64,000 nucleotides of DNA from Actinomycetes bacterium (GTDB taxonomy: Bacteria; Actinomycetota; Acidimicrobiia; Acidimicrobiales; Acidimicrobiaceae), in contig JAKARV010000009.1 in the NCBI GenBank assembly GCA_021819205.1, forward strand, positions 2,880 through 66,879. The letters are read 5' to 3'. This document shows positions 17,892 to 34,953 of the stretch, one piece after another; positions within the stretch are counted from its first letter, which is position 1; each line of letters begins with the position of its first letter. The position numbers and the translations under genes are program-made. The notes under the pieces are model-generated. The model saw only the letters and a list, made by a program, of their open reading frames with translations. It searched no databases and was not told the DNA's origin.

Positions 17892-19959
17892 TCTGCATCA
17901 GCACCCCAATGTTCTCGAGGTCAAGCAGCTTTCCACTCACATTCGGCAAAAAAGGTTCTCGATCCAGGCTGTTGATGGGGTGAGCTTTACGGTGGCCCAA
18001 GGTGAGACGCTTGGGATAGTGGGCGAGTCGGGATGCGGCAAGACGATCACTGCGCTTTCGATCATGGGGTTGCTTCCCCCGGGTGGAGAGGTGGTGGGCG
18101 GGAGCATCAGCCTCGACGGCGTTGAGCTGGTCGGCATGGACAGGGCCGAGTTGAGATCGCGCCGGGGATCGACCGTCGGCATGGTGTTCCAGGACCCGCT
18201 GACCTCGCTGAATCCGTCGAAGACGATCGGATGGCAGATTGGCGAGCCGCTGCGCATACACCGCCGCGCGAACAAAAAGGAGCAGCGAGAGCGGGCGCTT
18301 GAGCTGCTTTCGCTGGTGGGGATTCCGGCTCCTGCGGAGCGAATCGACGATTTCCCCCACCAACTCTCCGGTGGCATGCGCCAAAGGGTAATGATCGCAA
18401 TCGCGCTCGCGATGGAGCCGAAGCTGCTGATCGCGGATGAACCGACGACCGCTCTTGACGTGACCATCCAGGCGCAGATCCTTGACCTTCTTGACGGCCT
18501 CAAAGAGCAACTTGGCATGGGCCTCATGTTGGTGACGCACGACCTCGGTGTGATTGCCGGCCACGCCGACCGCGTCGTCGTCATGTACGCCGGCCAGGTG
18601 GTTGAGGAGGGGGCCGTTGGAGAGCTATTTGCCAGCATGAAGCATCCGTATACCCAATCGCTGCTCTCGTCGATTCCCCGTGTTGGCCAGGATCGCGCGC
18701 GCACCCTATCCTCGATACCGGGACTTCCGCCAGATTTGGCCAGCCCCCCTCTGGGCTGCCGCTTTGCACCCCGGTGCAGTCGCGCTCAAGAGAACTGCGC
18801 TTCCGCGGAACCAGCTCTCGGGCAGGTTTCGGCGACGCATCAATATGCTTGCCACCATCCGGTAAACGGGCCGCTGGAACCGGCCACTGCAGCCGTGGCC
18901 GTGCATGAGCGAGGCCCAAACGGGAACGGCGCCGATCGGCGAGTGCTGGTTTCGGCGAGAGACCTCACCAAGGAGTTCTCGCTCCATTCCGGGCTGCTGC
19001 AACGACGAGTGGGGACGGTGCATGCGGTTGCCGGGGTCTCATTCGACATCTATGCCGGCGAGACCTTTGGCGTCGTCGGCGAGTCCGGGTGTGGAAAGAC
19101 TACGCTAGGGCGGATCCTCGTGGGGCTCGAGTCGCAGACGTCGGGGTCGCTCCTGTTCGACGGCACGGACATCGCAACCCAAAGCAGGCGCGAACTTTGC
19201 CGCCTCAGGCGCAACTTCCAACTTATGTTTCAAGATCCGTACGCCTCGCTCGATCCGCGAATGAGGATAGGAACCTCACTCCAGGAACCCCTGGTGGTTC
19301 AGCGGCAGGGCGACCGCAAAGCGCGCTCGGCAAGGGTCATGGGGTTGCTGCGGGAAGTCGGCCTCAGGCCGGAGGCGGTCGAGCGATACCCCCACGAGTT
19401 CTCCGGAGGCCAGCGGCAGCGCGTGGGATTTGCGCGTTCCTTGGTGCTGAATCCGAGGCTGATCGTTGCCGATGAGCCTGTATCCGCGTTGGACGTCTCG
19501 ATTCGTTCGCAGATTATCAATATGATGCGGCGGCTTCAAGCGGTTCACGACCTCACGTACGTGGTAATCTCCCATGACATGGCTGTGATCAGCTATCTGG
19601 CCGATCGAGTTGGCGTGATGTACCTTGGCCGGATGGTTGAAGTAGCCAGCTCGACAGAACTCTTCAAACGCCCGGCCCACCCCTACACCCAGGGTCTGTT
19701 GAAGTCGGTTCCCGTGCCCGATCCGGCGATAGCGCGCACCGCCGGGCGCAAACCGGTAGTACTCGGCGAACTCCCGTCGCCAATCAACCCTCCATCCGGT
19801 TGCCATTTTCGAACGCGATGTCCGTTCGTGATCGACTTGTGCTCGAAGGAGATTCCACAAGCCGTGGAGGTCGCACCGGGGCACTCGGTCTCATGCCATC
19901 GAAGTCAAGAGGTATACAGTGGCGATCTGGTGGTGGGCAGCACTAGCGTCCGGGATTGA
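17860..19959 (+). CDS. Fused double ATPase of the peptide-type ABC importer (DppD-DppF fusion)
   Basis: 699 aa. Two Walker A motifs (GESGCGKT twice), two signature motifs (LSGGMRQR, FSGGQRQR) and two OppD/F-type Cys tails (CRFAPRC, CHFRTRCP). Confidence 0.9.
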   Translation: MTGRGLDLTPDLHQHPNVLEVKQLSTHIRQKRFSIQAVDGVSFTVAQGETLGIVGESGCGKTITALSIMGLLPPGGEVVGGSISLDGVELVGMDRAELRSRRGSTVGMVFQDPLTSLNPSKTIGWQIGEPLRIHRRANKKEQRERALELLSLVGIPAPAERIDDFPHQLSGGMRQRVMIAIALAMEPKLLIADEPTTALDVTIQAQILDLLDGLKEQLGMGLMLVTHDLGVIAGHADRVVVMYAGQVVEEGAVGELFASMKHPYTQSLLSSIPRVGQDRARTLSSIPGLPPDLASPPLGCRFAPRCSRAQENCASAEPALGQVSATHQYACHHPVNGPLEPATAAVAVHERGPNGNGADRRVLVSARDLTKEFSLHSGLLQRRVGTVHAVAGVSFDIYAGETFGVVGESGCGKTTLGRILVGLESQTSGSLLFDGTDIATQSRRELCRLRRNFQLMFQDPYASLDPRMRIGTSLQEPLVVQRQGDRKARSARVMGLLREVGLRPEAVERYPHEFSGGQRQRVGFARSLVLNPRLIVADEPVSALDVSIRSQIINMMRRLQAVHDLTYVVISHDMAVISYLADRVGVMYLGRMVEVASSTELFKRPAHPYTQGLLKSVPVPDPAIARTAGRKPVVLGELPSPINPPSGCHFRTRCPFVIDLCSKEIPQAVEVAPGHSVSCHRSQEVYSGDLVVGSTSVRD

Positions 19960-20444: not shown

Positions 20445-21833
20445 ATGGTGAAGATTGACGGCGGCTGGGATCTACCGAGTTTTTGGTTGGCAGAACTTGC
20501 CCCATTTGCACGACGTCCTCCGCTGAAAAGTTCCCAAACCGTCGATGTGGCGATTGTCGGCGCTGGGTTGAGCGGTCTGTGGACCGCATTTTATTTGACC
20601 ACCATAGATCCCGGGTTGAAAGTCGCCGTGGTGGAGAGGGAGACGGCGGGTTACGGGGCAAGCGGGCGAAACGGCGGTTGGGTGTCTTCGCTTTTTCCGG
20701 TTGGGTGGGAAAAACTGAACCGCCAGTTTGGCAAGGACGCGTCACAGCGCCTTTCGAAGGAATTGGTGGAGACATTGAACGAGGTGGAGAGCCGAGTCGC
20801 CGAACTGGGGATTGACTGCGACTTCACCAGGGCCGGCGCCATCTCGTTTATGCGCAACGAGGCTCAAGTCAAGCGGGGCGTTTTTGAAGTAGCCGAAGCA
20901 GAGAACCTCCGCCTCGGAGCCAAGTGGAGTTTGCTCAATGCCGCGGAATCCGATGCCCTTCTTTGCGCCTCGTTAGTTCATGGAGCCACGTTCACTCCAG
21001 ATTGTGCGACGGTACAACCGGCAAGGCTCGTGCGGGGATTGGCGGATGCAGTAGAAGCAAGGGGAGTTGCAATCTATGAAAATTCCCCGGTAAACGGAGT
21101 TGAGAACGGCTCGGTATATGTAGGGTCAACACGGTTGGCTGCGTCAAAGGTGGTAGTGGCTACCGAGGGGTATACGGCTGGTATCGATCAGTGGAAAAAA
21201 ACCTTGCTTCCCCTGTATTCGATGATGATAGTTACGGAACCGTTGAGCGATAGCCAGTACGAGGCGATAGGTTCCCCGGCGGAGGGGTTGTGTTTTGCCG
21301 ATCACCGCAACTTGGTCATTTATGGGCAGATCACCCGGGACAGGCGCGTTGCTTTTGGCGGCCGGGGCGCTCCTTACCACTTCGGCTCCAGGGTGATGCG
21401 AAGTTTCGATACCCATGGTCCGACCCGCAACGGTTTGGAAGATACCCTGTACGACCTGTTTCCGGCGTTGGAAGGGATCCGGATCGTTCGCCATTGGGGC
21501 GGACCACTCGGCGTCTCCAGGGACTGGCTTCCCCGAGTCTCCAAAGATAGCCGCGGGTCGATCTGGAGGATCGGGGGATACGCCGGCGATGGGGTGGCTG
21601 CGAGCAATCTTTGCGGCCGGGTTGCCGCAAATGAGGTTTTGGGGGTTCCTGACGAGAGCATGGCGCGAAGGGTGTTTTCTACTCCTCCCCGCGATTGGGA
21701 GCCAGAGCCACTCCGCTGGGCGGGTGTCAACCTTGGACTCGGACTTACGCGGGTTGTGGATGCTCTCGAGGATCGCGGGGCTGGAACTGGTTGGCTTGAT
21801 AGGTTGCGAAGGAAACTTATTGGGCAAGGTTGA
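20445..21833 (+). CDS. FAD-dependent (DAO-family) amine oxidoreductase, paralog of 16482-17891
   Basis: 462 aa. Motifs VAIVGAGLSGL and GASGRNGG; same overall architecture as the ORF at 16482. Confidence 0.8.
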   Translation: MVKIDGGWDLPSFWLAELAPFARRPPLKSSQTVDVAIVGAGLSGLWTAFYLTTIDPGLKVAVVERETAGYGASGRNGGWVSSLFPVGWEKLNRQFGKDASQRLSKELVETLNEVESRVAELGIDCDFTRAGAISFMRNEAQVKRGVFEVAEAENLRLGAKWSLLNAAESDALLCASLVHGATFTPDCATVQPARLVRGLADAVEARGVAIYENSPVNGVENGSVYVGSTRLAASKVVVATEGYTAGIDQWKKTLLPLYSMMIVTEPLSDSQYEAIGSPAEGLCFADHRNLVIYGQITRDRRVAFGGRGAPYHFGSRVMRSFDTHGPTRNGLEDTLYDLFPALEGIRIVRHWGGPLGVSRDWLPRVSKDSRGSIWRIGGYAGDGVAASNLCGRVAANEVLGVPDESMARRVFSTPPRDWEPEPLRWAGVNLGLGLTRVVDALEDRGAGTGWLDRLRRKLIGQG

Positions 21834-22106
21834 ACCGTCAGGATGACGCATCGAGGAGGGGTTGGGCTATGGCGTTTGCGACCGTGATCAACCGCCGCGC
21901 CGGTTGGAGGGGTCTGCGCCGGGGTTTCGCGGTTTGGCCAGCTTGCTCGATTGCTGCGGGGAATGAGAGGTCGCATGTTCAATGAGTGGCGGAAGTCATT
22001 GAACCTTGAAGGCGCCTGGCTTTCGGTCTGGAGGGCGTCTTGGGTTCGAGCGCAGTTTGAGCGATAGCAGGGACCGTGACCGGCGGGGCGCTTTGGCGAG
22101 CGGGGC

Positions 22107-22301
22107 TCAAGAGAGTGTGAGCGCTCGTGCCGGGCAGGCCTTCGTCGCCCGCTTGGCCTCCCTAAGGGTGTTTTCGTCGATCTCTTCGCTAATGATTATC
22201 GGGTAGCCCCAGCGGTCGAGCGTGATGCAGGAGGGCGCCATCAGTGCGCAGATTCCGTGCCCATTGCAGGCGATGCGATCCAAAGCGAGCCGGGTGTGCA
22301 T
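22107..22301 (-). CDS. Small single-cluster ferredoxin (CxxHxxC...CP type)
   Basis: 64 aa. CNGHGIC ... ACP pattern, as in actinobacterial 3Fe-4S/4Fe-4S ferredoxins. Starts 2 nt after the NuoF-like stop. Confidence 0.75.
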   Translation of the reverse strand: MHTRLALDRIACNGHGICALMAPSCITLDRWGYPIIISEEIDENTLREAKRATKACPARALTLS

Positions 22302-22302
22302 C

Positions 22303-23550
22303 TTAAACCTTGAAGACCGGCTGGGGGCCCTTGGCAGAGCACTTGCGGTTTCGATGCAGATGAACCTCCTCGCTGAACGTGGCGATCGCAGAGTTGAGCA
22401 TCGCGGTGGCCGCGTCGGGATGGCTGCACCCTCCTCTGCCGGCGATCTCGCGGATGAGGCGGATCACCGACCGTTCGGCCCTCCGTGATGGTCGTGTTCC
22501 CAACGCAGCTGGCAGCTTTGCCTGGAGCGCTGGCAGTCCAAACTGGCATGGACCGCACTGCTTTGCGCTTTGGGAGGCGAGGAAGCCAAACAGCCGCTGC
22601 GCTTCGTTTAGGCCGCAGGCGCCCTCAGGGACGACTCCGACCAGGCCGCAGCCGAGGGATCCATTCTCCTCGGCGCCCAGAAGCTCGAAGGGAGGCACGA
22701 ACCGGCCACCGTACCCTCCTATCAAATAGGCAAGTGGTTCCGCGGTTGCGCCACCGGCGGCCTCCAGCACCTCCATTGTCGGAGAGGGGTGGAGCAGCTC
22801 GACTACGGTCCCGGGCGAAAAGACTCCCCCCGAGAGCGTGAGCAGGCGGGAGCCGGGGGAGTTTGGGGTACCAAGAGATCTGAAGGCGGCGCTTCCGATG
22901 CGGGCGATGCTCGCCATCTGGGCAAGGGTCTCCACGTTGAAGACGACGGTCGGCGCTCCATTCACGCCGGTGTCGATCGGTCGCGAGAAGGTAGGGAGGG
23001 CGATTTGGTTGTTGAGGAAGTTTACCGCCGCGCTGGACTCGCCGGAGACGTAGCCATTTGGGGCGATTGCAATTTCGATGCTGACATCCTGTTGGCGAAG
23101 CTGAGAGAGTGCCCGCTGGAGCGAGGCGTGGACGTGCCGGTAGTCGTGAATGTAAAAATAGATTTTGCTCGCCGAGACGGCCTTTGCCGCAAGCCACGCC
23201 CCCTCGATGATTAGAAAAGGGCGATGGAGCATGAGCGCTTTGTCTTTGAGGCTGGCCGGCTCGCTCTCCGACCCGTTGGCCACCACTACCGCGTGTCGAC
23301 CTCGAGCCCTTGCGGCCGCGATCTTGAGGTGGGCGGGGAAGCCCGCCCCGCCTCGTCCGGTAAGGCCGGCGCTACGGACACGGTCTACAATCTCGTCCGC
23401 GGAAAGATCGGGGAGGAGTCCATAGAGCTCTCGGTGCGCCTGGAGATCCCAAAGGTAGGCTTGGCCGTTCCTTAGGAGCGATAGCTCGGACACCTCTGAA
23501 CTCGAGTCGGCTCCGGCGAAGGTGGCTGCCTGTCCAACGCCGGTGCTCAT
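22303..23550 (-). CDS. NuoF-like NADH/FMN-binding iron-sulfur protein (complex-I 51-kDa-subunit-like, stand-alone)
   Basis: GLTGRGGAGFPAHLKI and VVANGSESEPASLKDKALM match the NuoF FMN/NADH site; the C-terminal Cys motif is KQCGPC...GGCSHP. The Met at 23550 overlaps the upstream stop (ATGA). The 572-aa ORF in the track is an N-terminal over-extension. Confidence 0.75.
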   Translation of the reverse strand: MSTGVGQAATFAGADSSSEVSELSLLRNGQAYLWDLQAHRELYGLLPDLSADEIVDRVRSAGLTGRGGAGFPAHLKIAAARARGRHAVVVANGSESEPASLKDKALMLHRPFLIIEGAWLAAKAVSASKIYFYIHDYRHVHASLQRALSQLRQQDVSIEIAIAPNGYVSGESSAAVNFLNNQIALPTFSRPIDTGVNGAPTVVFNVETLAQMASIARIGSAAFRSLGTPNSPGSRLLTLSGGVFSPGTVVELLHPSPTMEVLEAAGGATAEPLAYLIGGYGGRFVPPFELLGAEENGSLGCGLVGVVPEGACGLNEAQRLFGFLASQSAKQCGPCQFGLPALQAKLPAALGTRPSRRAERSVIRLIREIAGRGGCSHPDAATAMLNSAIATFSEEVHLHRNRKCSAKGPQPVFKV

Positions 23551-24206
23551 GCGCTTCTTACCTCCCGAACCCTGGAGGCAAAAAGGCCACACAAAACCGT
23601 CTCCACCAAGATGACCAGGTAGAGCGGTAGCAGCTCTGGCGTGTCGGTGCCGGCGGTCACGCCATGGATCCAGGCCGCGAGGAACATGACTATAGCCAAC
23701 CGGTGAATCGAGAGCCAGCTCGGCCCCACCAACAAGCCAGAGAGGGCCGCCGAACCTCCAACGGCGAGTCCTAGGTAGAGAGCGGCAGTTCCAATAGCGA
23801 CAGCGAGCGGACGGTAGGTGGCCGAGAACGGGACGATGATCCCGATAAACCCCACTCCGGCGTACTTGTCGATCGCCAGGGTGAGTAGGTGGACCACCAG
23901 GAACGAGCCGCCGATCGCCGCGAGGATGCGGTGCAGCCGCAAGAGCGTTAGCTGGCTTATCCCGGCCCGGTAGAGCGGGATCTTGCCTCTGGCCGCAAAG
24001 CCCAGGTTGGTGAGGACCCAAAGTATGAGCAGAGTGGCGATTCCAAAAATCCGCCCAAGTTCCCAGGGGAGGAACTTCAATGGCAATGCCCCGATCACCA
24101 TTCGCTCGAAAACGTAGCCGAAGGCCGCCGCCGTCACCAGTGCGGAGGCGGCTGCAACGGTGGCCGGCCTGGGCTCTCGTGCCGGCTGGCTCAGCTCGCT
24201 AGCCAC
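23547..24206 (-). CDS. Stand-alone ferric-reductase-domain (FRD / MsrQ-YedZ-like) di-heme membrane protein
   Basis: 219 aa, about 6 TM helices. Two intramembrane His pairs have NOX/FRE-type spacing: HRILAAIGGSFLVVH (H-x13-H) and HRLAIVMFLAAWIH (H-x12-H). Confidence 0.65.
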   Translation of the reverse strand: MASELSQPAREPRPATVAAASALVTAAAFGYVFERMVIGALPLKFLPWELGRIFGIATLLILWVLTNLGFAARGKIPLYRAGISQLTLLRLHRILAAIGGSFLVVHLLTLAIDKYAGVGFIGIIVPFSATYRPLAVAIGTAALYLGLAVGGSAALSGLLVGPSWLSIHRLAIVMFLAAWIHGVTAGTDTPELLPLYLVILVETVLCGLFASRVREVRSA

Positions 24207-25117
24207 CTCAACTGGTCCTGCATCTGTGTGGAAAAGCGATAGCTCCCATCATCGAACACCCAGAAGGCCGCGACATTCTCCTCCTCGGCAATCTCGTTGA
24301 TCCGGTTTTGGCCGCTTAGAAACAAGGTCTTGGAGAGTACTTCGGCGCGTGCGGGGTCAGAATGTAGCACGGTCACCGAGAGAAGGCCTTCGCCTCCCGG
24401 AAGGCCGGTCGCCGGGTCGATGAGGTGGTGCACCGGGACTCCGCCTCGGCGCCAGCTGCGAAGTCGGATTGACGAAGTGGCGCAGCCGGCATCGTGGACC
24501 GCGACAATTGCAATGTGGCCGGTCCCGTTTGGATTTTCAATTCCGATCAGCCACTCGTCGGCGTCGGCTGGAGCTCCCTTTGCGTAGCAGTCTCCTCCGG
24601 CTTCGATCAGGAACGCCGACGAGTAGGTTCCGAGAGTTGTCGCTGCATCCCGTACCGCAAGCCCCTTCCCGATTCCGCCGAGATCGATTGGGTGGGATCC
24701 GACTTTAACGGACAAACTCCTGGCGTCGAACTCCGGGCTCCAAGTTGGAAGTGGATTGCGGCGATCGGGCACCATTGCGCCCTCCTCGTCGCCGACCTGG
24801 GAGAAGGTTTCAGCGTAGCCCAACCGGCACAGGTCTTCGAAAACCCGCGGATCAAAGATCTTCTGAGTCTCCAGATAACCTTCGTAAGCCTCTTTGATCG
24901 CGGTGAAGGTCAGTCGTGATACCCGATGCATGTGGGAAGGATCGTGGTTGATCTCCGAAAGTTCGCTGCTCTCTTTGAAGCGCGAGAGTGTGGCCTCGTA
25001 GCGCCTGAAGACCGATACCACTTCTGCTCCTTGCCACTCCTCGGTATCGCTTTCACTTGCATCTGCAATCAGGATGCTGATGTTCGAAGCCATCGCCTTG
25101 GTCTGGATCTTGATCAT
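24191..25117 (-). CDS. apbE: FAD:protein FMN transferase (ApbE family), no recognisable signal peptide or lipobox
   Basis: 308 aa. ApbE motifs DLGGIGKG, EAGGD and ATSSIRLR...VHHLIDPATGLP. The N-terminus MIKIQTKAMASNISILIADASESD is not signal-like. Confidence 0.85.
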   Translation of the reverse strand: MIKIQTKAMASNISILIADASESDTEEWQGAEVVSVFRRYEATLSRFKESSELSEINHDPSHMHRVSRLTFTAIKEAYEGYLETQKIFDPRVFEDLCRLGYAETFSQVGDEEGAMVPDRRNPLPTWSPEFDARSLSVKVGSHPIDLGGIGKGLAVRDAATTLGTYSSAFLIEAGGDCYAKGAPADADEWLIGIENPNGTGHIAIVAVHDAGCATSSIRLRSWRRGGVPVHHLIDPATGLPGGEGLLSVTVLHSDPARAEVLSKTLFLSGQNRINEIAEEENVAAFWVFDDGSYRFSTQMQDQLRWLAS

Positions 25118-25121
25118 CGGC

Positions 25122-25457
25122 CTACCCGAGTCCAGAAGCGCCGGTCGTGGCGTGGGCCGCGGGAGTGTTCACTGGGGGAAGGTTCGGCAGCGAGAAGTTG
25201 AGAGCGGATTTGCCTGCTTGGGGCGAGAGACTTTGGATGCTTGAGATTGCTCGAAGGTCCTGTTCAAGAAGGCGTTGGAGCTGGGAGACCTGAAGTTGCT
25301 GGGAGATGAGTGCGGCCTTGCGAATAGCAGCTGCGCGCTCCCGCTGAACCTGTGCCATCTGGGACTTTACCGGCCCCGCGGCAACTGCCACGCTTGCCGC
25401 AGCTGTTGCCGCAGCAAGCGTGGTGGGAACCCAGCGGATTAACGTTCCCAGTGACAT
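25122..25457 (-). CDS. Membrane-anchored coiled-coil protein with C-terminal ATTGASG tail (hypothetical)
   Basis: 111 aa from the Met at 25457, with AGGGAGG 7 nt upstream. One N-terminal hydrophobic helix, a Q/L-rich heptad-like segment, and the ending ...PAAHATTGASGLG. Confidence 0.5.
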   Translation of the reverse strand: MSLGTLIRWVPTTLAAATAAASVAVAAGPVKSQMAQVQRERAAAIRKAALISQQLQVSQLQRLLEQDLRAISSIQSLSPQAGKSALNFSLPNLPPVNTPAAHATTGASGLG

Positions 25458-25482
25458 AAATCTGCCTCCCTTCGCAGGGCCT

Positions 25483-26064
25483 TTAGTTGTCGCTGCTGGA
25501 GGATGAGCCGCCGTTGTCGCCGCTGCCCTGCTGCTGCCCATCTCCTGAGTGAGAGTCGGTGCTGGAAGTGCCGGAGGCGCCGGTGGTAGCGCTCACCGGC
25601 GGGGTAATGGTGTTGCTCGGTGTCGCCGCCAGGGCCTGCGCCTCCTGCTCCAACTGCGTCTGCTCTGCTGCAAGCTTCTGCGCCTCAAGCTGCAGGTTCG
25701 CCTCCTGCTGCTGGACGGTGGTGTTAGTGCTGGCGATCTTGGCGTTCTCCTGCGCCATCACCCCCTTCAGGCGCCCCTCCGCCGCGGCGATCTCGGCGTG
25801 GAGGCGTGCCTCTTGGGATTTGAGCGACCCTACGGACCCCGTTGCCGGAGTTGCCGGAGTTGCCGGGGTTGCCGGGGTTGCCGGGGTTGCCGGGGTTGCC
25901 GGAGTTGCCGGAGTTGCCGGAGTTGCCGGGGTAACCGCGATCTGGGAAGGTGGAGTTGTTGTGGCGGAGGTACTTGCCGTTACGTTCACTGCAGCCGCGG
26001 TTCCACCCGCCACCACGCCGCCAGCAGCCAGAAGTTTGATCAGCCACTGTATCTTTCCGGTCAT
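25483..26064 (-). CDS. Membrane-anchored/secreted protein: (PAT)x10 linker + coiled coil + ATTGASG-containing Ser/Gly-rich tail (hypothetical)
   Basis: 193 aa with AAGGAGAGG upstream of the ATG. N-terminal hydrophobic helix, 10 PAT repeats, Q/E/A-rich coiled coil, then ...PPVSATTGASGTSSTD.... Confidence 0.55.
   Translation of the reverse strand: MTGKIQWLIKLLAAGGVVAGGTAAAVNVTASTSATTTPPSQIAVTPATPATPATPATPATPATPATPATPATPATGSVGSLKSQEARLHAEIAAAEGRLKGVMAQENAKIASTNTTVQQQEANLQLEAQKLAAEQTQLEQEAQALAATPSNTITPPVSATTGASGTSSTDSHSGDGQQQGSGDNGGSSSSSDN
25841..25930. repeat. Tandem 9-bp repeat (gttgccggr) x10 encoding (Pro-Ala-Thr)10
   Basis: Ten consecutive in-frame units counted directly, with only the third-position a/g varying. 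Confidence 0.95.
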
Positions 26065-26319
26065 CGACCTCTCCTTTCGGTTGGATTTCGATGAATACAG
26101 CTTCGATGTCCAAGTTGAACTAAACCTAAGCTGACTATGAGAAAACTCTAATCTGGCATAAATTAGATCACGGATAGTGGCGAAATGTGCTCGCAGGTTG
26201 GGTGCAGGTTGAGGTATTTAGAAAAATTCCTCGATAAAGGCCGCGCACAAAACAAATTGAAAATCATTAAACGCTATAGAAAACTATGGTAGGGTCTAAG
26301 AATAGCCAAGGAGGGCAGA
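26065..26319. promoter_or_regulatory. AT-rich divergent control region between the redox/coiled-coil operon and the T4SS-like operon
   Basis: 255 bp, visibly less GC-rich than its surroundings. Both flanking genes have strong SD sequences. It contains a direct repeat CTAT(G)AGAAAACT at 26135-26147 and 26274-26285. Confidence 0.45.
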
Positions 26320-26607
26320 ATGACATGGATGTCACTAGATGTAAGCTTGACCCCCGATCCGAGCGCGTTGCCTGGCGGATCGATTTTGCAGCAGCTGGCA
26401 GACGGCATCGGAGGTTGGGCGCTGATTCTTGCGTTGGTCGGGCTGGTAGTTGGCGCGGCAACCTGGGCGCTGGGCGCTCACTCGCAGAACTACCAGCAGT
26501 CGTATCTGGGACGCAGGGCGGTACTGGTCTCGGTTGCGGCGGCGCTAATCATCGGGGCTGCTCCAGCGATCATAAACTTCTTTTTTCATCTGGGCCTTGG
26601 CGCGTAA
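26320..26607 (+). CDS. Small two-TM pilin-like membrane protein (resembles actinobacterial DUF6112 / VirB2-analog proteins)
   Basis: 95 aa with AAGGAGG SD. Pattern PDPSALPGG...(TM)...WALGAHSQN...GRRAVLVS...(TM)...INFFF matches my recollection of the DUF6112 family found at the head of actinobacterial T4SS clusters. Confidence 0.6.
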   Translation: MTWMSLDVSLTPDPSALPGGSILQQLADGIGGWALILALVGLVVGAATWALGAHSQNYQQSYLGRRAVLVSVAAALIIGAAPAIINFFFHLGLGA

Positions 26608-26610
26608 CGG

Positions 26611-27669
26611 GTGTTGAACAGCCTCTTCGGGATACCCCTGGCGGCCCTTGGGCGGGCACTCGTCTCGGTGGCCGCTGCTGCGGCGGGATCGTTTTTGACC
26701 CGCACAACCGTGGAGCTTGCCTCCTGGTTATTGAGGGAGATCACCCAAATTCTGCTAGCCCCGGGAGGACTGAACCTTGGTGCTGGATTTTTTGCACGCG
26801 CCTACTTGGGTTCCGCCAAGCTTGCGGCAGAACTCGCCCTTCCCGCGCTGTTGCTGGCGGTGGTGGCCACCATTCGCAAAGGATCACTCGCGGGCCTAAC
26901 CGAAATCCTGCTCAGGGTCCCGGTCGCGTTCCTCGTGATCGGTATTGCACCTGCGGTCGTGGAGCTGTTGGCGCGAGTCGTGGACGCCGCGGCAGGTACC
27001 GGCCTGGTGGGCATCTCTGCGCTCCCGCGGTTAGCTGACCTACTCCAGGCTGGAATCGGCAACCCGATGCTGGGCCCGGTCGTTGGAACGTTTCTAGCGG
27101 CCATCGCCCTGGCCGGGGCGGTGCTGATCTACGTCGAGTTGATCGGGAGGGACGCTGCACTTTACCTATGCCTGTCGATGCTACCCCTCACTGCTATCGG
27201 GATAATTTGGCCAGCCCTGAGGCACTGGTTTTCGAAGACGCTCAAGCTGATCGCCGGTCTGCTGTTGACCAAACTCGTGCTTGCGGCGGCGGTGGGACTC
27301 GGTGCGGGCGCTATTGCCGGCGCTGGGGGTGGTACCGCCGCCGAAGCCGCCGCCGGAGCTGCCCTGATCATCGCCGGGGCGTTTGCGCCGCCGGTTGTCT
27401 TTAGGGTTGTCGGCTTTTCGGAGCTTGCTCTCGTCGAGCTCTCCGGCTCGATCGCCAAGGTAGCTGCCTCCCGTACCGCGGGCGGCGCGCAGCGGGCGAT
27501 CTCGGGAGCGATGGCACTCCCCGAATGGATGGAGGTCTCCCGCCTCTCCTCGCAGCCGTCGCGGCTTCCCTGGTACTCGGGGTATCCGCCCCCATCTGAG
27601 CTGGCAGAGCGGGCGAAGAGCGATCCTTGGATGCACGAGTTTCTTTACCGGGGGCGGAAGCGGGGATGA
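26611..27669 (+). CDS. Polytopic membrane protein, VirB6/TrbL-like
   Basis: 352 aa with at least 6 hydrophobic helices and a Gly/Ala-rich segment. The GTG start lies 3 nt after the upstream stop. Its position in the cluster matches TrbL/VirB6. Confidence 0.5.
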   Translation: MLNSLFGIPLAALGRALVSVAAAAAGSFLTRTTVELASWLLREITQILLAPGGLNLGAGFFARAYLGSAKLAAELALPALLLAVVATIRKGSLAGLTEILLRVPVAFLVIGIAPAVVELLARVVDAAAGTGLVGISALPRLADLLQAGIGNPMLGPVVGTFLAAIALAGAVLIYVELIGRDAALYLCLSMLPLTAIGIIWPALRHWFSKTLKLIAGLLLTKLVLAAAVGLGAGAIAGAGGGTAAEAAAGAALIIAGAFAPPVVFRVVGFSELALVELSGSIAKVAASRTAGGAQRAISGAMALPEWMEVSRLSSQPSRLPWYSGYPPPSELAERAKSDPWMHEFLYRGRKRG

Positions 27670-28859
27670 GCGAACGCATCCTGTTGGGAACGCCCGCCCA
27701 GGGAACCAGGATCCTCGGCATCCCCCTTGCCCGGGCATCCGCGGGCTCGGCTGCCGTTGCCAGCGCTCTCGCCGGTTGGGCGGGGTACGGTACCGCTGGC
27801 CTCCTTTTTGCCCTTCTCGTTATCGGGGCCGGTGCACTTGGGCTTGCCTACTTGCACCGATCAACGATCTATCCGGGGGCGTGGTTGCGACTGGTGGCCA
27901 AACGGCATCGCGGTGGCTTTGTCGATGACGGTGGGTACCTGGCTACGGTGGGCACGGCACGAACGGTACTGGCCTTTCGGCTCGAGCTCGCCACGCCGAG
28001 ACTATTCGGCCGAATTGAAGGGGAGGAGGGGGTGGACTGGGTCAGGCTGTTAACCGTGACCGCCAAACTTGCCGCTGGATTCCGTGGCGGCGCCAGGGTG
28101 GTGCTGTCGACCAGCATCTTGCCCTCGCTCCTCCGGTCGTCTTCTCCACCACTGCTCGAACCGGTGTACGAGGTAGTGTCGCGGCTAACCCTCTCACCGC
28201 GCTCAAAGCTGAACCGAACGGAACTAGAAAGGCTGGGTACCTGTGCGCAGCAGCTCTCCGCGCTCTCTTCCGAACTCGCGACGGTGCGCCTCGTGCGCCT
28301 CGAAGGTGGTCGCGCGCTTCTCGAGAGCTCGGTTGCTTCTCTTATTACCGGGGTGAATTCGGAAATTGTCGAGAGGGAGGACCGCCTCGAACTTGCGGGG
28401 TCGGTGGCATCGGTTCTAATGATCAAGGGGTGGGGGGAGGCTTCGCCACCACCTGGCCTATTGGCTCCGTTGTTCGCAGCCACTCCCCCGGCACGGTTGA
28501 TGGGGGTAGTGCTGGATCCGCTCGAGGCGAGAAGGGCGTTCCGCACCGTTGGGAGAGCTCGTGCCGAGCAGGAGGCGGACTCCCGGCTCTTGAGGCAGCA
28601 CGGCTACCTGGAGCGGCTGGCGGAGAGTGCTCGCACAACCGCCGCGGCGCTGCAGGAGGAGCGGCTTCTCGCCGGGTATGCCCTTGCCCGGTTTCAGATC
28701 GTCTCGGTAGTGCTTGCCCCCAACCGGGCCGGTCTGCGCAGAGAGCTTCGGGAGATGATCGAACTGGGGCTCCGCTGCAACGTCGAGTTCGCCGTGGCGC
28801 TCGGGCACCAGCGGGAGTGGTTCGAGCTGGCAACCGCGGGGGTTGAGGGATGGAGCTAG
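27666..28859 (+). CDS. TM-hairpin protein with a VirB4 N-terminal-like domain (SCO6880-family-like; VirB3/VirB4N analog)
   Basis: 397 aa from the Met at 27666 (ATGA overlap). The N-terminal double TM is followed by about 330 soluble residues with no Walker motifs. It sits immediately upstream of the ATPase. Confidence 0.5.
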   Translation: MSERILLGTPAQGTRILGIPLARASAGSAAVASALAGWAGYGTAGLLFALLVIGAGALGLAYLHRSTIYPGAWLRLVAKRHRGGFVDDGGYLATVGTARTVLAFRLELATPRLFGRIEGEEGVDWVRLLTVTAKLAAGFRGGARVVLSTSILPSLLRSSSPPLLEPVYEVVSRLTLSPRSKLNRTELERLGTCAQQLSALSSELATVRLVRLEGGRALLESSVASLITGVNSEIVEREDRLELAGSVASVLMIKGWGEASPPPGLLAPLFAATPPARLMGVVLDPLEARRAFRTVGRARAEQEADSRLLRQHGYLERLAESARTTAAALQEERLLAGYALARFQIVSVVLAPNRAGLRRELREMIELGLRCNVEFAVALGHQREWFELATAGVEGWS

Positions 28860-30022
28860 CGTGGCAGGCTACAACGGACGCGCTCGCCAGGATACCGGTT
28901 CCGACGGCGAGCCCGCTGACGGGAGGAGAACGCAACCCGCTCGGGTTGCTCGCCACCGGCGGGACTTTCTGCTTCGACCCATTCGACCTCTACGCCCGGG
29001 GCCAGATTACCAACCCAAACCTTCTCGTTCTTGGCGATGTCGGACGGGGCAAAAGCACCATGGTGAAGACGTTTCTTCATCGCGGCCTTGGTGAAGGCCA
29101 GTCGCTGGCTATCGTCGATCCGAAGGGAGAGTACCGGGAGCTTGGAAAAGTTTTGGGGGCGACTTGGCTCGCACCGGGCGATACTGGCGGGATCGATCCG
29201 TTTGCCGGATATGGTTCGAGCCCGTCGGAGGTGGCAACTGCGGTATTGGCGTTTATATCGTTGGCGCTTGGGCGCGATCCCACCGATGTCGAAAAGGCGG
29301 TCGCGGCCGCGATAGCACGCCATCTCGCCGCCGAGCGCCGACCCCCGAGTATTCGGCACCTCATCCACCTCTGTGGCCGTCCCAGCCTGGTAGGGGCGAT
29401 GGTGCCAACCATTCTCCGAGGGGAGGCGGAACGGTTGATGGCCGCCATGGGGATGGACCTCGAGCGGGTGGTAACGGGAGACCTCGCCGGTCTGTTCGCC
29501 GTCGATGGCAGGACGAAGCCGCTACCGGAGCGTGTGGTGATCGATCTCGGGGCAGTGGGGAGCGGGGAGCTTGGAGCGCTCGCTACTGCCGCAATCTTGC
29601 GGAGCCGGATCGCTGATCTGGCCCTAAGGCGCATTGGTGCCGGTTATGTGGTTCTGGACGAGGCATGGTCGGTGCTGCGCGACGGGAAAAACGCCGCCTC
29701 GATACGTTCTTTGCTCAAGCTTTCGCGAGCTTACGGCGCTTCCGTGATCGCGGTGACCCATCGGCTCTCGGATTTGAGTTCTGGCGCAAGGGAACTGGTC
29801 CGAGAGTGCGGAAGCGTCTCCCTCTTCTCTCAAGGGATCGGGGAGGCAGCGGAACTCCAGGAGTGGTTCGGATTTGATCCGCTACGTTGCAGCCTGGCCT
29901 CCGATCTTCCGCGGGGGAGGGCGATCTGGCTCTTGGGGCGGCGCGAATTCCTGGTAGACCACGTGGTGAAGCCGTCCGAAGCCGGCATGGTCGATACCGA
30001 CTCGCGGATGGTTGCGCGATGA
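28850..30022 (+). CDS. VirB4/TraC-type secretion ATPase (ATPase domain only)
   Basis: 390 aa. Walker A GDVGRGKST, Walker B YVVLDEAW, then VTHRLSDL. It overlaps the upstream gene by 10 nt. Confidence 0.75.
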   Translation: MELAWQATTDALARIPVPTASPLTGGERNPLGLLATGGTFCFDPFDLYARGQITNPNLLVLGDVGRGKSTMVKTFLHRGLGEGQSLAIVDPKGEYRELGKVLGATWLAPGDTGGIDPFAGYGSSPSEVATAVLAFISLALGRDPTDVEKAVAAAIARHLAAERRPPSIRHLIHLCGRPSLVGAMVPTILRGEAERLMAAMGMDLERVVTGDLAGLFAVDGRTKPLPERVVIDLGAVGSGELGALATAAILRSRIADLALRRIGAGYVVLDEAWSVLRDGKNAASIRSLLKLSRAYGASVIAVTHRLSDLSSGARELVRECGSVSLFSQGIGEAAELQEWFGFDPLRCSLASDLPRGRAIWLLGRREFLVDHVVKPSEAGMVDTDSRMVAR

Positions 30023-31239
30023 TTGCGCTCCTCTTGCTGCTGGTTCTGGTGGCGGCGGGGGTAACGGTCGGCCGGGACGGCAACTTCCGACACTCTCCGA
30101 ACTCTCGCCGGCTCTCCCCCGGCGATGGCCGGCGTCTTCACCGGTGGCGTTTCGGGTCGCCGACGCATTTTTCCCACCCATCGTGCGATCTGAGAATCGC
30201 CGCCGGGAGGCGGGAGATCCGCTTGGACTCCGAGTCCTCTCTCCTGGTGGTTGGACCCACCCGATCGGGAAAGACCCGGTCGGTGGTAGCCCCGAACTTG
30301 ACGCGGTGGAACGGCCCGCTCCTCTATGCGTCGGTCAAAGACGAACTGCTGAACGAGGAGGTGTTATCGGCGCGGTCGGCGTTTGGAGCGGTGTACGTGC
30401 TTGGGCCTTCCCCGCGCGCTAGCGCCTCGTGGTGGCCGGCTCTCGAAGCCAACTCGGCTGCCGCAGCCCAAAGGATGGCGAACATCGTAATCTCGGTTCA
30501 CGGCGGGAACGGAATCGATGGGACCGAGACCCGGTTCTGGTACGGGCTGGCAGAGCCGGTCCTGGCCGGCCTGCTCCGGGCGGCCAACCTCGCGGGGATT
30601 CCCGAGTCCGAAGTCGCTTCGTCGCCGGCTCTCGCCGAGCGTCTGCTGGAGAAGGCCGGAGAAGGGCAGTTGGCGTCGGAGGTAGCGGGCGCAGGTGGGC
30701 TTGACCAGAGGACCCGAAGTTCGGTGCTGCTCACAGTGAAGCAGCTGCTCGACCCGCTCTCCCGGATCGAGCAGCGCGGGCCGGCGGTAGCGCTCTCGGA
30801 TCTGCTGCCGGGGTCGGTCCTGCTGGTAGGCTCGATCGGCCAGCAACAGGAGGCGGCGATCTACCTCTCTACCTTCATCTCCGCCTACCTCCGGACCGTT
30901 CTTGAGCCCGGAGCCGGGGCGGCGCGGCTCCTTCTCCTCGATGAGGCGGCGCACCTCTCGCGGGTGCCGGAGTTGGCGGCGGCCGCCTCAGTCGGAATCG
31001 GCCTCGGGATCAGGATGGTCACGGTGGTCCAAGATCTCTCGCAGTTGGCAGCGCGTTACCGGGATGGGTGGCGCTCCATCGTCAGCAACCATACCGCGCA
31101 GCTTTTCCTGGGAACCGGAGGCGACGGGCTGACGCGCGACTACCTGACTCAAGCCTTTGGCGGAGATCCGCCGAACGGCAAAATCCTGCTTGAGAGGAGG
31201 AGACGGCCGTCGGTGATTTGGGAGCTACGCAAAGCTTAG
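30019..31239 (+). CDS. Type IV coupling protein (VirD4/TraG-like, TraM-recognition-domain type)
   Basis: 406 aa from the Met at 30019 (ATGA overlap). N-terminal TM MIALLLLLVLVAAGV, Walker A GPTRSGKT, Walker B LLLLDEAAH. Confidence 0.75.
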   Translation: MIALLLLLVLVAAGVTVGRDGNFRHSPNSRRLSPGDGRRLHRWRFGSPTHFSHPSCDLRIAAGRREIRLDSESSLLVVGPTRSGKTRSVVAPNLTRWNGPLLYASVKDELLNEEVLSARSAFGAVYVLGPSPRASASWWPALEANSAAAAQRMANIVISVHGGNGIDGTETRFWYGLAEPVLAGLLRAANLAGIPESEVASSPALAERLLEKAGEGQLASEVAGAGGLDQRTRSSVLLTVKQLLDPLSRIEQRGPAVALSDLLPGSVLLVGSIGQQQEAAIYLSTFISAYLRTVLEPGAGAARLLLLDEAAHLSRVPELAAAASVGIGLGIRMVTVVQDLSQLAARYRDGWRSIVSNHTAQLFLGTGGDGLTRDYLTQAFGGDPPNGKILLERRRRPSVIWELRKA

Positions 31240-31252
31240 GTTCGGGTGCTCC

Positions 31253-31648
31253 GTGCCGATGTCATTCTCCATGATCGAACAAGATCCAGGTATCGTCGAG
31301 GCGAACCTCCTTTTGGCACAGTTGGAGGAGGCGCTCACCGAGATGGAGAGGGTGGTCTCCGAAGACCAGTACGCCCAACTCGCGAGGGTTTCGGCGCAGG
31401 TTGAGGCGGTCGTGGCCGGGTTGAGCCGGCTGAAGATCGGAGCCGAAGGTAGCGATTCGGCAGTCGAGCAGCTCCGCGAGCGGCATCACCACCTCGCCAC
31501 CAGGGCAAGCGGCTTGGCCGCCGCTTGCTTCTGGCGCTCCCTGCTGGTATCGAACCTGCTCCGCGACCTAGGACTGGATTTGGGCATCTACGGAAGGGAT
31601 GGGCTGATCGAGCCCCAAGGCGTGCACTCTGTAAGCGAGAACGCATGA
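31253..31648 (+). CDS. FlgN-like flagellar export chaperone (putative)
   Basis: 131-aa helical, acidic protein. The call rests on its position directly upstream of flgK (ATGA overlap), as in flgN-flgK-flgL operons; no strong motif was seen. Confidence 0.4.
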   Translation: MPMSFSMIEQDPGIVEANLLLAQLEEALTEMERVVSEDQYAQLARVSAQVEAVVAGLSRLKIGAEGSDSAVEQLRERHHHLATRASGLAAACFWRSLLVSNLLRDLGLDLGIYGRDGLIEPQGVHSVSENA

Positions 31649-33027: not shown

Positions 33028-33037
33028 GAGGACCGAA

Positions 33038-33943: not shown

Positions 33944-33981
33944 ATCCAACCGTACGCAAAACGATGCAAGGAGAGTATGCG

Positions 33982-34437
33982 ATGAAGGTTCAAGAGGAGA
34001 GCGCGGCAACCGCCCTCTCGCTTCCACTGGCGTTCCCGATCGGCCTGCCGGGATTCGAGACGTACCACAGCTTCCACCTCGTGGGTCTCGGGCCGGCGTA
34101 CGGCCCTTACCTGGGTTTGCGCTGCGCAATCGACGAAGGGCCTACTTTCGTTGTGGTTCAGCCGAGCGAGATCGGGATCACGCTTGAACTAGAGATCGAC
34201 GACTTCCACCAAGCACTGCTCGGAATCAAGGATGCCTCCGAAGTTCTGGTAATGCTCATCGCGACCTTGCGCGAGGAGAAAGCCTTCCCTACGGTCAATA
34301 CCCAGGCTCCGCTGGTGATCAACGTCACCAACTGGAAAGTTGCCCAAGTCTCCCAGTCCAACGCCGAGTACCGGTTGGACCAGGAGGCAGAGGTAGCGTT
34401 CTACGACGCGGAACGGGCTATTGCTGCCCTTCGGTAG
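33982..34437 (+). CDS. fliW: Flagellar assembly factor FliW (CsrA antagonist)
   Basis: LAFPIGLPGFE...FVVVQP...INVTNWKVAQV pattern. AAGGAG lies 8 nt upstream of the ATG at 33982. Confidence 0.85.
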   Translation: MKVQEESAATALSLPLAFPIGLPGFETYHSFHLVGLGPAYGPYLGLRCAIDEGPTFVVVQPSEIGITLELEIDDFHQALLGIKDASEVLVMLIATLREEKAFPTVNTQAPLVINVTNWKVAQVSQSNAEYRLDQEAEVAFYDAERAIAALR

Positions 34438-34645: not shown

Positions 34646-34953
34646 TGCGCCTCCCTGCGCCCGTAGGCGATCGTCCCCTCACTGAATATCGCGGATCCCA
34701 CAAAGACAATTTCATCGCCCACTCAAGGTGAGAGCAACATACATTATCTTGCCGACCCATTAGCAATAGTACCACAGGTGGTGGGGGTGCTACCGGAGTT
34801 TCGCCATCTGTTGAAGCAAAGTCGCAGCTCCCAAGGGAGACGGACGGTGCCGGGCGACCATGGACCGGTGGCTGGCAACCCTGGAGACATTTCGGTAAAG
34901 CGAACGCGGCTGGGTGTCGAAAGAGAACCATCGCAAGACTTAAGGAGGAGTCG

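Follow-up and report, generated by a model that had tools for sequence, protein, structure and literature searches.

The window analysed here (the whole stretch of DNA, 64,000 nt) carries on its minus strand an operon of six genes in the order A, B, ApbE, dihaem MsrQ-like membrane protein, NuoF-like protein and ferredoxin. The genes are translationally coupled, with gaps or overlaps between neighbours of −16 to +25 nt, and are arranged as follows.

25483..26064, minus strand: gene A, 193 amino acids (aa), with an N-terminal signal or anchor segment, a PAT linker, a Q/A/L/E-rich stretch, a long helix (residues 79–146) and a disordered S/G/D-rich tail
25841..25931 (approximate), minus strand: extended linker of A, made up of nine PAT tripeptide repeats
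25122..25457, minus strand: gene B, 111 aa, with a weakly hydrophobic N-terminal segment, a long helix (residues 10–80) and a Pro-rich disordered tail ending ...PPVNTPAAHATTGASGLG-stop
24191..25117, minus strand: ApbE-family FAD:protein FMN transferase, 308 aa (Pfam PF02424, E = 4e-45)
23547..24206, minus strand: MsrQ-like or ferric-reductase-like membrane protein, 219 aa, with six predicted transmembrane (TM) segments; the first 16 nt of the gene overlap the end of apbE
22303..23550, minus strand: NuoF-like NAD(P)H/FMN/[4Fe-4S] protein, 415 aa (Pfam PF01512 and PF10589; start codon checked)
22107..22301, minus strand: small single-cluster ferredoxin, 64 aa, which closes the operon (Pfam PF13459, E = 4e-11)

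As the original prediction had stated, A and B lie directly upstream of ApbE, on the same strand and with coupled spacing. The ATG of B is preceded by a GGGAGG ribosome-binding site, that of ApbE lies 4 nt past the stop codon of B, and that of the NuoF-like gene shares an ATGA with the stop codon of the preceding MsrQ-like gene. A promoter and terminator scan of positions 21800–26400 returned nothing informative.

The relatives of this ApbE in the PDB are TM1553 and T. pallidum Ftp, and its HHLIDP and ATSS motifs are conserved. In place of A-D-A-L-S-T, which we take to be the canonical Mg-site motif of ApbE proteins, it has A-E-V-W-S-K. We dropped this substitution as a marker of altered specificity because it is also present in the ApbE of a canonical cluster (L027), and therefore cannot separate A–B-type from FMN_bind-type operons. 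The MsrQ-like protein matched Pfam PF01794 weakly (E = 1e-3; 19.6 bits, below the cut-off of 28). Its residues H92, H106, H168 and H181, spaced as H-x13-H and H-x12-H, were invariant in 70 of 70 homologues, and several residues of its outer face, W48, R52, Y131, R132 and D188 among them, are conserved. The operon thus holds the elements of an MsrQ-like system, namely a six-TM protein with two bis-His pairs, apbE and a NuoF-like donor with PF10589. It contains no FMN_bind gene, which is typical of MsrQ-like clusters, if not strictly defining.

Two proteins with one terminal peptide

The common plan proposed for A and B, with an anchor, a helix and an unstructured tail, was supported by AlphaFold2 models, in which B is a single helix followed by a disordered tail (residues 81–111) and A is disordered outside its helix. 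These helices may pair in an A/B coiled coil. Comparison of A with B was suggestive of paralogy, with a marginal BLASTP match (E = 0.095) and an hhalign probability of 97% that covers 34 helical columns only. Pfam and NCBIfam searches with A and B returned zero family matches, and neither protein has a fold known to hold flavin (FMN_bind, NqrB/RnfD, DUF2271, DUF3570, Flavodoxin_4 or FMN_red). Both are without a flavin-binding pocket, so an FMN tethered to them would be solvent-exposed unless docked on the MsrQ-like protein.

The C-terminal end of A reads ...SSSSSDN. Its orthologues have the same architecture, with a near-invariant C-terminal G-G-D-[DN] and between zero and five copies of the motif described below; some have three to five in tandem, and the A of locus L009 has five. 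The number of PAT repeats differs even between two near-identical relatives, in which A is 209 and 215 aa long.

The tails of A and B contain the same heptapeptide, ATTGASG.

25570..25590, minus strand: ATTGASG in A, residues 159–165; candidate FMN attachment site Ser164 (nt 25575..25573)
25131..25151, minus strand: ATTGASG in B, residues 103–109, two residues ahead of the stop; candidate FMN attachment site Ser108 (nt 25136..25134)

In a six-frame translation of the 64-kb window, ATTGASG occurred exactly twice, both times in these adjacent minus-strand genes, which bears out the identity noted originally. Scanning the six operon proteins for [ST]G[AS][ST] returned the same two copies alone, and the description of the T-G-A-S pair as the only [ST]GA[ST] matches in the operon therefore stands. 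At the DNA level, the copies differ at 5 of 21 bases, every difference falling on a synonymous third position. Hence the peptide has been kept at the protein level, and a recent DNA repeat is excluded. These synonymous differences and the control ORF statistics given below together rule out a chance or low-complexity source of the heptapeptide.

Both copies have the [ST]-G-A-[ST] core of ApbE substrates, in each case as T-G-A-S, and both lack the conserved Asp of such substrates, an absence to which the original prediction had drawn attention. Three residues ahead of the core, where the Asp would stand, B of the window has His (context P-P-V-H-A-T-T-G-A-S-G) and A has Ser. Across 56 sequences, this position was most often His (19), followed by Gln (6), Asn (6), Ser (5), Asp (4), Thr (4) and other residues (12). 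The canonical D-x-x-[ST]-G-A-[ST] was not found in any real ORF of the window.

Conservation of the peptide and its linkage to apbE

The family was first reached through ApbE synteny; a direct search with B alone yielded one homologue. The ApbE-based set comprised 80 non-redundant related loci, in 32 of which the gene ending just upstream of apbE had [ST]GA[ST] within its last 12 aa. For operons of the NuoF type, the last 12 aa of the gene preceding apbE held [ST]GA[ST] in 24 of 35 cases. Variant endings of the T/S-x-x-S kind were found in 27 further loci of the 80, with the form [ST]-[RKH]-x-S in 19 and small variants in 8. By comparison, [ST]GA[ST] occurred in 14 of 5374 control ORFs (0.26%), and its background in ORFs of the related loci was 2.2e-4 per residue; the enrichment over control ORFs exceeds 100-fold.

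Independent gene calls recovered the same six-gene operon in unrelated neighbourhoods. All three B homologues from a profile search (3/3) lay directly upstream of an ApbE gene, so that the genetic linkage of B to apbE, a hallmark of ApbE substrates, is kept in both search directions. The annotated contexts had no conserved neighbour beyond the six genes, two-component and ECF-sigma genes being occasional only, and clustering of neighbouring ORFs gave mostly antisense shadow ORFs and low-complexity matches. An alternative substrate gene (FMN_bind) was present in only one of the 80 related loci, L027.

A heptapeptide not conserved in orthologues had been named in advance as a possible refutation. 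We found it to be conserved: in unforced MAFFT alignments of 39 and 20 B homologues, with a mean column identity of 20–31%, Thr105 and Ser108, the Thr and Ser of T-G-A-S, were the sole invariant columns, and P99 and A107 were at least 90% conserved. The B family comprises at least 351 clusters at 50% identity (E ≤ 1e-3). Among the best 145 of these 351, 100 had the strict motif and 44 had variants; of the representatives of the same best 145, 131 fitted the motif or variant pattern a few residues from the C terminus, and 13 further ones differed from it at the Gly or at a position beside the Gly. The motif Ser lies 0–5 residues from the C terminus. The core Gly is kept in only about 65–70% of members, its replacements being R, K, H, T, C, A or S in about a quarter to a third of relatives, and more distant operons have the endings T-R-T-S, T-K-S-S or T-H-V-S. 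When ApbE residues were tested for covariation with the motif state (G versus R/K/H), the top columns were confounded by phylogeny and gave no clean charge-compensating pattern. Together, conservation and gene order show, at the level of sequence, a functional peptide with a link to ApbE.

Comparison with known flavinylation systems

Judged by these sequence features, A and B are probably a new and widespread class of candidate ApbE substrates inside the known MsrQ-like system. MsrQ-like flavinylation-associated clusters with apbE have already been catalogued, and their proposed role is NAD(P)H-driven electron export, possibly iron reduction (Meheust et al. 2021, eLife, PMC8238504). Like the operon described here, these mainly actinobacterial clusters have a PF01794-type dihaem membrane protein beside apbE, and 31 published ones include a NuoF-like (PF10589) cytosolic donor (PMC8238504). 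The present operon differs in having no FMN_bind, DUF2271 or DUF3570 and, instead, two domain-less proteins with tagged tails. The published survey required a predicted signal peptide in the ApbE, FMN_bind or DUF protein (PMC8238504), a filter through which operons of this kind, with a signal-less ApbE and no FMN_bind, would drop out.

There is precedent for finding ApbE substrates in this way. DUF2271 and DUF3570 were identified as substrates by context and then confirmed; as with A and B, a conserved [ST]GA[ST] was present in unannotated proteins next to 'orphan' apbE genes (PMC8238504). Unlike A and B, both are folded, with domain sizes of about 135 and 420 aa, and they belong to other electron-transfer systems (P19/iron and DsbD-linked) (PMC8238504). 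PplA and the multi-flavinylated extracellular electron transfer (EET) proteins of Gram-positive bacteria resemble A and B in being associated with the membrane or wall, in carrying from one to many covalent FMNs and, for some, in having a coiled-coil core (PMC8238504, PMC11334425). They have been proposed to relay electrons across the wall, and A orthologues with three to five tandem motifs are comparable. However, every flavin of these proteins sits in an FMN_bind domain, and the ApbE of the PplA system (FmnB) is an exported lipoprotein that receives FAD from a dedicated transporter (PMC8238504, PMC11334425).

Two further cases place the motif outside the FMN_bind fold or at a terminus. In the FMN_red proteins of Lactococcus, flavinylation was predicted at sites on a C-terminal extension that is unstructured, and experiments confirmed that the proteins are flavinylated (Huang et al. 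2024, mSystems, PMC11334425). There, too, an ApbE motif is located on a disordered extension outside the FMN_bind fold, but the tail folds back onto the flavin site of a globular flavoprotein (PMC11334425), whereas A and B have no globular domain. For the ApbE tag, 7 residues suffice, placement is best at protein termini, and the effects of replacing the Asp with Ala are minor (PMC12052999). The engineered Flavin-tag (Tong et al. 2021, as described in PMC12052999) is a terminal 7-residue motif of which the B tail would be a natural lookalike; as described there, the tag is synthetic and follows the canonical D-x-x-[ST]-G-A-T. The A and B tails depart from it: the Asp gives way to His or another polar residue, the presumed acceptor is Ser, and the residue at the Gly position varies. 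The published ApbE motif is D-[AGS]-x-[ST]-[GS]-A-[ST], and the Gly substitutions seen in the family fall outside it.

Proposed function and location of the tails

On balance, we favour as reasonably probable a self-contained module for electron export, in which A and B serve as the acceptor subunits that carry flavin, alongside ApbE, the dihaem MsrQ-like protein, the NuoF-like protein and the ferredoxin. We infer covalent attachment of FMN, the direction of electron flow and the identity of the acceptor as follows. ApbE would move FMN from FAD onto the motif Ser (Ser108 of B and Ser164 of A), the motif acting as a natural 'flavin-tag' in place of the folded FMN_bind protein of canonical MsrQ-like clusters. 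Electrons from NAD(P)H would pass through the NuoF-like protein (FMN, Fe-S) and the ferredoxin to the haem pair of the MsrQ-like protein, then to the FMN tethered to the tails of B and A, and finally to an extracytoplasmic acceptor. A metal ion bound at the C terminus of A, which is acidic and often rich in His, may be this acceptor.

It is also conceivable, if rather unlikely, that the C-terminal peptide docks on the MsrQ-like protein or receives some other modification, such as O-glycosylation or phosphorylation, with A and B purely structural and the ApbE substrate encoded elsewhere in the genome. Such a role would account for the missing Asp, for distant endings that barely resemble [ST]GA[ST], and for a Gly position that tolerates R, K, H, T, C and A, which is unusual among known ApbE sites; the mismatch between ApbE and its putative substrates in localization, discussed below, would fit as well. 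Set against this, the best-conserved positions (T, A and S) are those in common with the ApbE motif, the peptide adjoins apbE whichever way the search is run, and the operons seen hold no alternative substrate gene except in the canonical L027. Moreover, the position taken by the FMN_bind gene in canonical MsrQ-like clusters (PMC8238504; L027) is filled in these operons by A and B.

We consider it distinctly improbable that the tails are flavinylated but cytoplasmic, with the tethered FMN feeding electrons from the NuoF-like protein and ferredoxin to the inner haem of the MsrQ-like protein. This would require that the weakly hydrophobic, Ala-rich N-terminal segments do not translocate the C terminus. 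An analogy is offered by E. coli MsrQ, which is fed by free flavin reduced by Fre. ApbE, which looked cytoplasmic in the original prediction, does lack a signal peptide in the window and in all A–B loci examined; with B stopping 0–60 nt ahead of it in these loci, ApbE has no space for such a peptide. In one locus (L043), ApbE is apparently fused to the cytoplasmic N terminus of the MsrQ-like protein, which puts it at the cytoplasmic face. Many N-terminal segments in the family are marginally hydrophobic (mean Kyte–Doolittle over 19 residues of 1.2–1.8; 1.46 for B of the window), and B of the window has more positive charge after its hydrophobic segment than before it.

That charge pattern had led to a C-in reading of B, which the family did not support: B of the window is an outlier, and in 49 of 59 sequences the positive charges are N-terminal of the segment, a distribution that predicts tails outside the cytoplasm. 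Many of the N termini are signal-peptide-like and have a cleavage-type site of the form xWA. Exported proteins of actinobacteria typically have long P/A/T-rich linkers and acidic tails, and the linkers and tails of A and B fit export in this respect. In L027, a signal-less ApbE is paired with an FMN_bind protein whose N-in anchor is strongly hydrophobic, so lack of a signal peptide in ApbE need not mean a cytoplasmic substrate. We also considered Tat export as a general answer to the localization mismatch; only 30 of the 59 B sequences have an RR ahead of the segment, and B of the window is not among these, so that Tat cannot be a universal solution.

The suggestion that A and B are wall-spanning accessories of the divergent T4SS-like operon, with a coincidental or recently duplicated heptapeptide, can be set aside: such a cluster (DUF6112/TrbC-like, TrbL/VirB6-like, VirB4-like and coupling protein genes) begins 256 nt upstream on the opposite strand and recurs in the closest relative, but none was called in the other annotated loci (L005 and L088–L093), where apbE is always adjacent, and the coupling of A and B to apbE, the five synonymous differences between the motif copies and the motif enrichment all speak against it. 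Orthologues with T4SS genes but without ApbE, likewise named in advance as a possible refutation, were looked for, and the A–B pair was instead found to accompany apbE and the MsrQ-like gene in unrelated neighbourhoods.

Returning to A and B as acceptor subunits of an electron-export module, we suggest one route by which a signal-less ApbE could reach exported-looking tails. Speculatively, A and B may be 'leashed flavin shuttles' that are loaded in the cytoplasm and then exported, a version that we regard as possible but doubtful. Here ApbE, docked at the cytoplasmic face of the MsrQ-like protein, would load the C-terminal tag before export. With an unfolded peptide as its tag in place of a folded FMN_bind domain, a chain already flavinylated could still be exported, and no export of FAD would be needed. 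The coiled-coil stalk and the Pro/Ala/Thr linker would then let the FMN swing between the outer haem and acceptors past the wall, which could include metal ions bound at the acidic, His-rich end of A. On the same scheme, A orthologues bearing three to five tandem tags would be domain-less multi-flavin relays.

The A–B family is widespread, its clusters being distributed over Actinomycetota, Chloroflexota and related lineages, and carriers of the operon include the culturable Cellulomonas (L041, L049). If A and B are indeed flavinylated, ApbE targets need no flavin-binding fold, and a bare terminal peptide on a stalk would be enough in nature; to our knowledge, such a peptide has so far been a sufficient ApbE target in protein engineering only. 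The accepted motif would widen to include R, K, H, T, C or A in place of the Gly and His in place of the Asp, which would improve genome-wide prediction of flavinylated proteins. The finding also raises the question of how a signal-less ApbE serves exported substrates in these Gram-positive lineages. The A–B operons would also provide a minimal model of tethered-cofactor electron transfer through the cell wall.

Two stalk proteins and their terminal peptide

Two small anchored proteins, A and B, are encoded directly ahead of apbE in a six-gene operon that diverges from a type IV secretion (T4SS)-like cluster.

Features of the operon and the divergent cluster
26064-25483, minus: gene A, 193 aa, preceded by a Shine-Dalgarno-like sequence
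25457-25122, minus: gene B, 111 aa, preceded by a Shine-Dalgarno-like sequence
24191-25117, minus: ApbE, FAD:protein FMN transferase (Pfam PF02424, E = 4e-45)
23547-24206, minus: ferric-reductase/MsrQ-like membrane protein (Pfam PF01794, weak, below the cut-off)
Downstream of the MsrQ-like gene: NuoF-like protein (Pfam PF01512 and PF10589)
Last operon gene: small ferredoxin (Pfam PF13459)
26320-31239, then 31525-37155, plus: T4SS-like cluster, leading into flagellar and chemotaxis genes

As the original prediction described, the heptapeptide ATTGASG occurs in both A and B: six-frame translation of the window yielded exactly two copies (A residues 159-165, B residues 103-109), and no further [ST]G[AS][ST] site is present among the six operon proteins. 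Because their coding copies differ at five positions, all synonymous third positions, identity is maintained at the peptide level. The apbE ATG lies 4 nt past the B stop codon, apbE and the msrQ-like gene overlap by 16 nt, an ATGA is common to the end of the latter and the start of the nuoF-like gene, and the ferredoxin gene starts just past the nuoF-like stop codon; this spacing indicates translational coupling.

No family match was found for A and B in Pfam or NCBIfam, for 39 B homologues in Pfam or for a few A and B homologues in NCBIfam, and source databases label such proteins 'hypothetical'. For B, AlphaFold2 gave one helix (residues 10-80) and then a disordered tail; for A, it gave a helix (79-146) with disorder on either side. 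Profile-profile comparison of A with B gave 97% probability, but over 34 helical columns only, so that paralogy is plausible, not established. A orthologues have a common N-terminal anchor, a helix, 0-5 motif copies and a near-invariant acidic end, G-G-D-[DN], often expanded to His/Asp/Glu-rich runs. Two near-identical orthologues (L002, 2984-3613, 209 aa; L003, 2832-3479, 215 aa) are distinguished solely by how many STT/PAT repeats the linker contains; the stalk linker of A therefore has repeat-length polymorphism.

Conservation of the peptide and its linkage to apbE

A direct search with B returned one homologue (68% identity, HATTGASGLG-stop unchanged), so relatives were traced through the synteny of ApbE. 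This protein has more than 2,000 homologues, the closest being 42-50% identical, about 300-340 aa long and from MAGs of Acidimicrobiales, Frankiales, Dormibacteria and similar. An ApbE-alignment scan with one genome per species gave 80 loci, about 35 of which keep the ApbE/MsrQ-like/NuoF-like/ferredoxin arrangement. In 32 of the 80 non-redundant loci (24 of 35 NuoF-type operons), the final 12 residues of the ORF ending just before apbE include the strict motif, [ST]GA[ST]; among control ORFs from the same loci, 14 of 5,374 (0.26%) have it near their end, and one of the 14 is in fact B in a rearranged operon. The ORF before apbE ends in [ST]-[RKH]-x-S in 19 of the 80 loci and in a small variant (TSAS, TGGS and similar) in eight; the remainder include incomplete contigs and one canonical FMN_bind cluster.

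When 39 B proteins were aligned unforced with MAFFT, mean column identity was 20%, Pro99 and Ala107 were at least 90% conserved, and the only two invariant columns were the Thr and Ser of T-G-A-S, as they were again in a second alignment of 20 database matches. The anchored profile of the B tail reads P-P-V-H-(A/T)-T-T-G-A-S-G, then 0-5 residues. Searching 1.84 billion cluster representatives with the B profile retrieved 351 clusters at E <= 1e-3 (250 at E <= 1e-10), nearly all 135-240 aa long with the match reaching the C terminus. Among the best 145 of these 351, 100 have the strict motif (95 as T-G-A-S) and 31 a variant (TGGS, TRAS, SGGS, TSAS, TKAS); 13 of the other 14 read HATT[T/C/A]ASG or HACTTASGKPC. 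The peptide is thus conserved in orthologues, and these comparisons show it to be the only constrained part of two otherwise fast-evolving, domain-less stalk proteins.

One B subgroup ends in H-A-C-T-T-A-S-G-K-P-C or H-A-T-T-C-A-S-G-K-x-C (loci L042 and L044; clusters P0171, P0235, P0253, P0278 and P0291), so that two Cys bracket the candidate Ser; a disulfide between them may close the tail into a loop. A 3944-aa protein (P0157) matched the profile in 29 separate stretches, almost certainly through coiled-coil or low-complexity similarity, not homology.

The divergent DUF6112/T4SS-like neighbour of the window recurs in the closest relative, whose ApbE is 79% identical. An operon at 48% ApbE identity adjoins a SNF2 helicase, with no T4SS genes there, and independent gene calls for three further contigs give the same six-gene set amid unrelated neighbours, with H-x-T-T-G-A-S in both small proteins. 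In the reverse direction, all three B homologues from a profile search made without reference to ApbE are immediately followed by an ApbE gene. A and B therefore travel with ApbE rather than with the T4SS, of which they might have been accessory parts. Layouts are A-B-ApbE-MsrQ-NuoF-Fd in Actinomycetota, MsrQ-A-B-ApbE in Chloroflexota and A-B-ApbE-MsrQ in Gaiellales, Thermoleophilia and others; the conserved core, common to all three, therefore consists of A, B, ApbE and the MsrQ-like protein. Taken as sequence evidence, these loci show a conserved, coupled operon and a peptide obligately linked to apbE.

In more distant ApbE/MsrQ-like operons (L058-L086: Gaiellales, Thermoleophilia, Anaerolineae and one Moraniibacteriota MAG), the gene before apbE has, as its very C terminus, T-R-T-S, T-K-S-S, T-R-S-S, T-H-V-S, T-R-A-S or S-R-G-S, and the upstream gene terminates in long runs of His/Asp/Glu, for example HEDHEDHGDHGDHGEHEDHEDDD. 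This pair may represent a diverged version of the A-B module.

The window's T4SS-like cluster encodes a DUF6112/TrbC-like pilin, a TrbL/VirB6-like protein, a 410-aa protein without assigned function, an AAA_10/TraG-P-loop ATPase and a TraG/VirD4-type coupling protein. It leads straight into flagellar/chemotaxis genes (FlgK, flagellin-N (FlgL-like), CheA), an unusual juxtaposition for a genome that appears Acidimicrobiales-like from best hits. Just downstream of the operon, on the plus strand, an oligopeptide-type ABC ATPase (17860-19959) lies between two paralogous FAD-dependent oxidoreductases of the DAO family (16482-17891 and 20445-21833).

Candidate ApbE substrates and their topology

No other candidate substrate was seen in the six-gene operon. 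A and B show the core motif expected of ApbE substrates and, as expected, are linked to apbE; they lack the Asp and a known fold. The Gly of the core can be replaced by R, K, H, T, C or A, which does not fit the published ApbE motif; this points either to looser specificity in these ApbEs or to some other function of the peptide. When ApbE columns were compared with the Gly or R/K/H state of the motif, the top-ranking ones were confounded by phylogeny and formed no clean pattern of charge compensation. We regard another role for the peptide as doubtful, and consider it reasonably probable that A and B are flavinylated, with their tails outside the membrane.

Counting Lys plus Arg up to 15 residues from the hydrophobic segment, B homologues have a mean of 3.3 before it and 1.1 after it, with an N-side excess in 49 of 59 sequences, which argues for a family that is N-in/C-out or secreted. 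The window's B is an outlier (one versus three), so the suggestion that its C terminus faces inwards holds for its own charges but not for the family; flavinylation on a cytoplasmic tether, which would suit those charges, is unlikely.

ApbE has no signal peptide, nor any space for one in the loci examined, as B stops 0-60 nt upstream. In L027, the one canonical cluster in the set of loci, which also has a ferric-reductase-FAD-NAD protein, the FMN_bind protein (DGVSGATLTS) is firmly membrane-anchored and the ApbE N terminus is not hydrophobic. The mismatch of compartments thus seems to be a trait of this ApbE clade and, judging from this one canonical locus, does not look like a specific argument against A and B. 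The clade has invariant Glu259 and Lys263 in its alignment (A-E-V-W-S-K, ApbE residues 256-263), a signature also present in the L027 ApbE; structurally characterised ApbE/Ftp proteins have A-D-A-L-S/A-T here, where Ftp binds Mg2+. Of 59 B sequences, 30 have twin arginines ahead of the hydrophobic segment; the window's B does not, so Tat export after cytoplasmic flavinylation is part of the answer at most. In L043 (6965-8665), ApbE and the MsrQ-like protein appear to occupy one continuous ORF, which may be a natural fusion with ApbE at the cytoplasmic N terminus of the membrane protein, or an assembly frameshift.

A possible tethered flavin in MsrQ-like systems

If A and B are flavinylated, ApbE would place FMN on Ser108 of B and Ser164 of A, and electrons from NAD(P)H would travel via the NuoF-like protein, ferredoxin and two haems to the tethered FMN and then an external acceptor. 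In the MsrQ-like protein, whose termini are predicted to be cytoplasmic by the positive-inside rule, H92, H106, H168 and H181 are invariant in 70 of 70 homologues, an arrangement that by alignment is the bis-haem pattern. On its predicted outer face, W48, R52, D113, P126, Y131, R132, G186 and D188 are invariant or nearly so in the same 70; they may form a docking site for the tethered flavin, with Arg, Trp and Tyr as candidates, or for the acceptor. Metal might be bound at the acidic, His-rich end of A, which would be consistent with the proposal that MsrQ-like systems reduce iron (PMC8238504).

Broad conservation across Actinobacteria is described for MsrQ-like clusters that contain apbE; 31 of them have a NuoF-like gene, and an FMN_bind gene is a typical member (PMC8238504). 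That survey retained only clusters in which ApbE or a known substrate has a predicted signal peptide, a filter that would have excluded operons like the window's; 4% of apbE-containing genomes are still without a substrate (PMC8238504). The closest precedents are Lactococcus FMN_red, with its site on an unstructured C-terminal extension, but of a folded flavoprotein (PMC11334425), and the engineered seven-residue Flavin-tag, which works best at termini (PMC12052999); the literature searched contained no description of a domain-less tail substrate. A and B would thus represent a new variant inside a known class of system, MsrQ-like with apbE. Some A orthologues carry the motif in tandem: five copies in L009 (2548-3153; SHATTGASG, SHAITGASG, AHTRTGASG and AHTTTGASG twice), and VHTTTRAS four times in L011 (6011-6550) and three times in L017 (6011-6544). 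If these copies are flavinylated, the three would be multi-flavinylated proteins without an FMN_bind domain.
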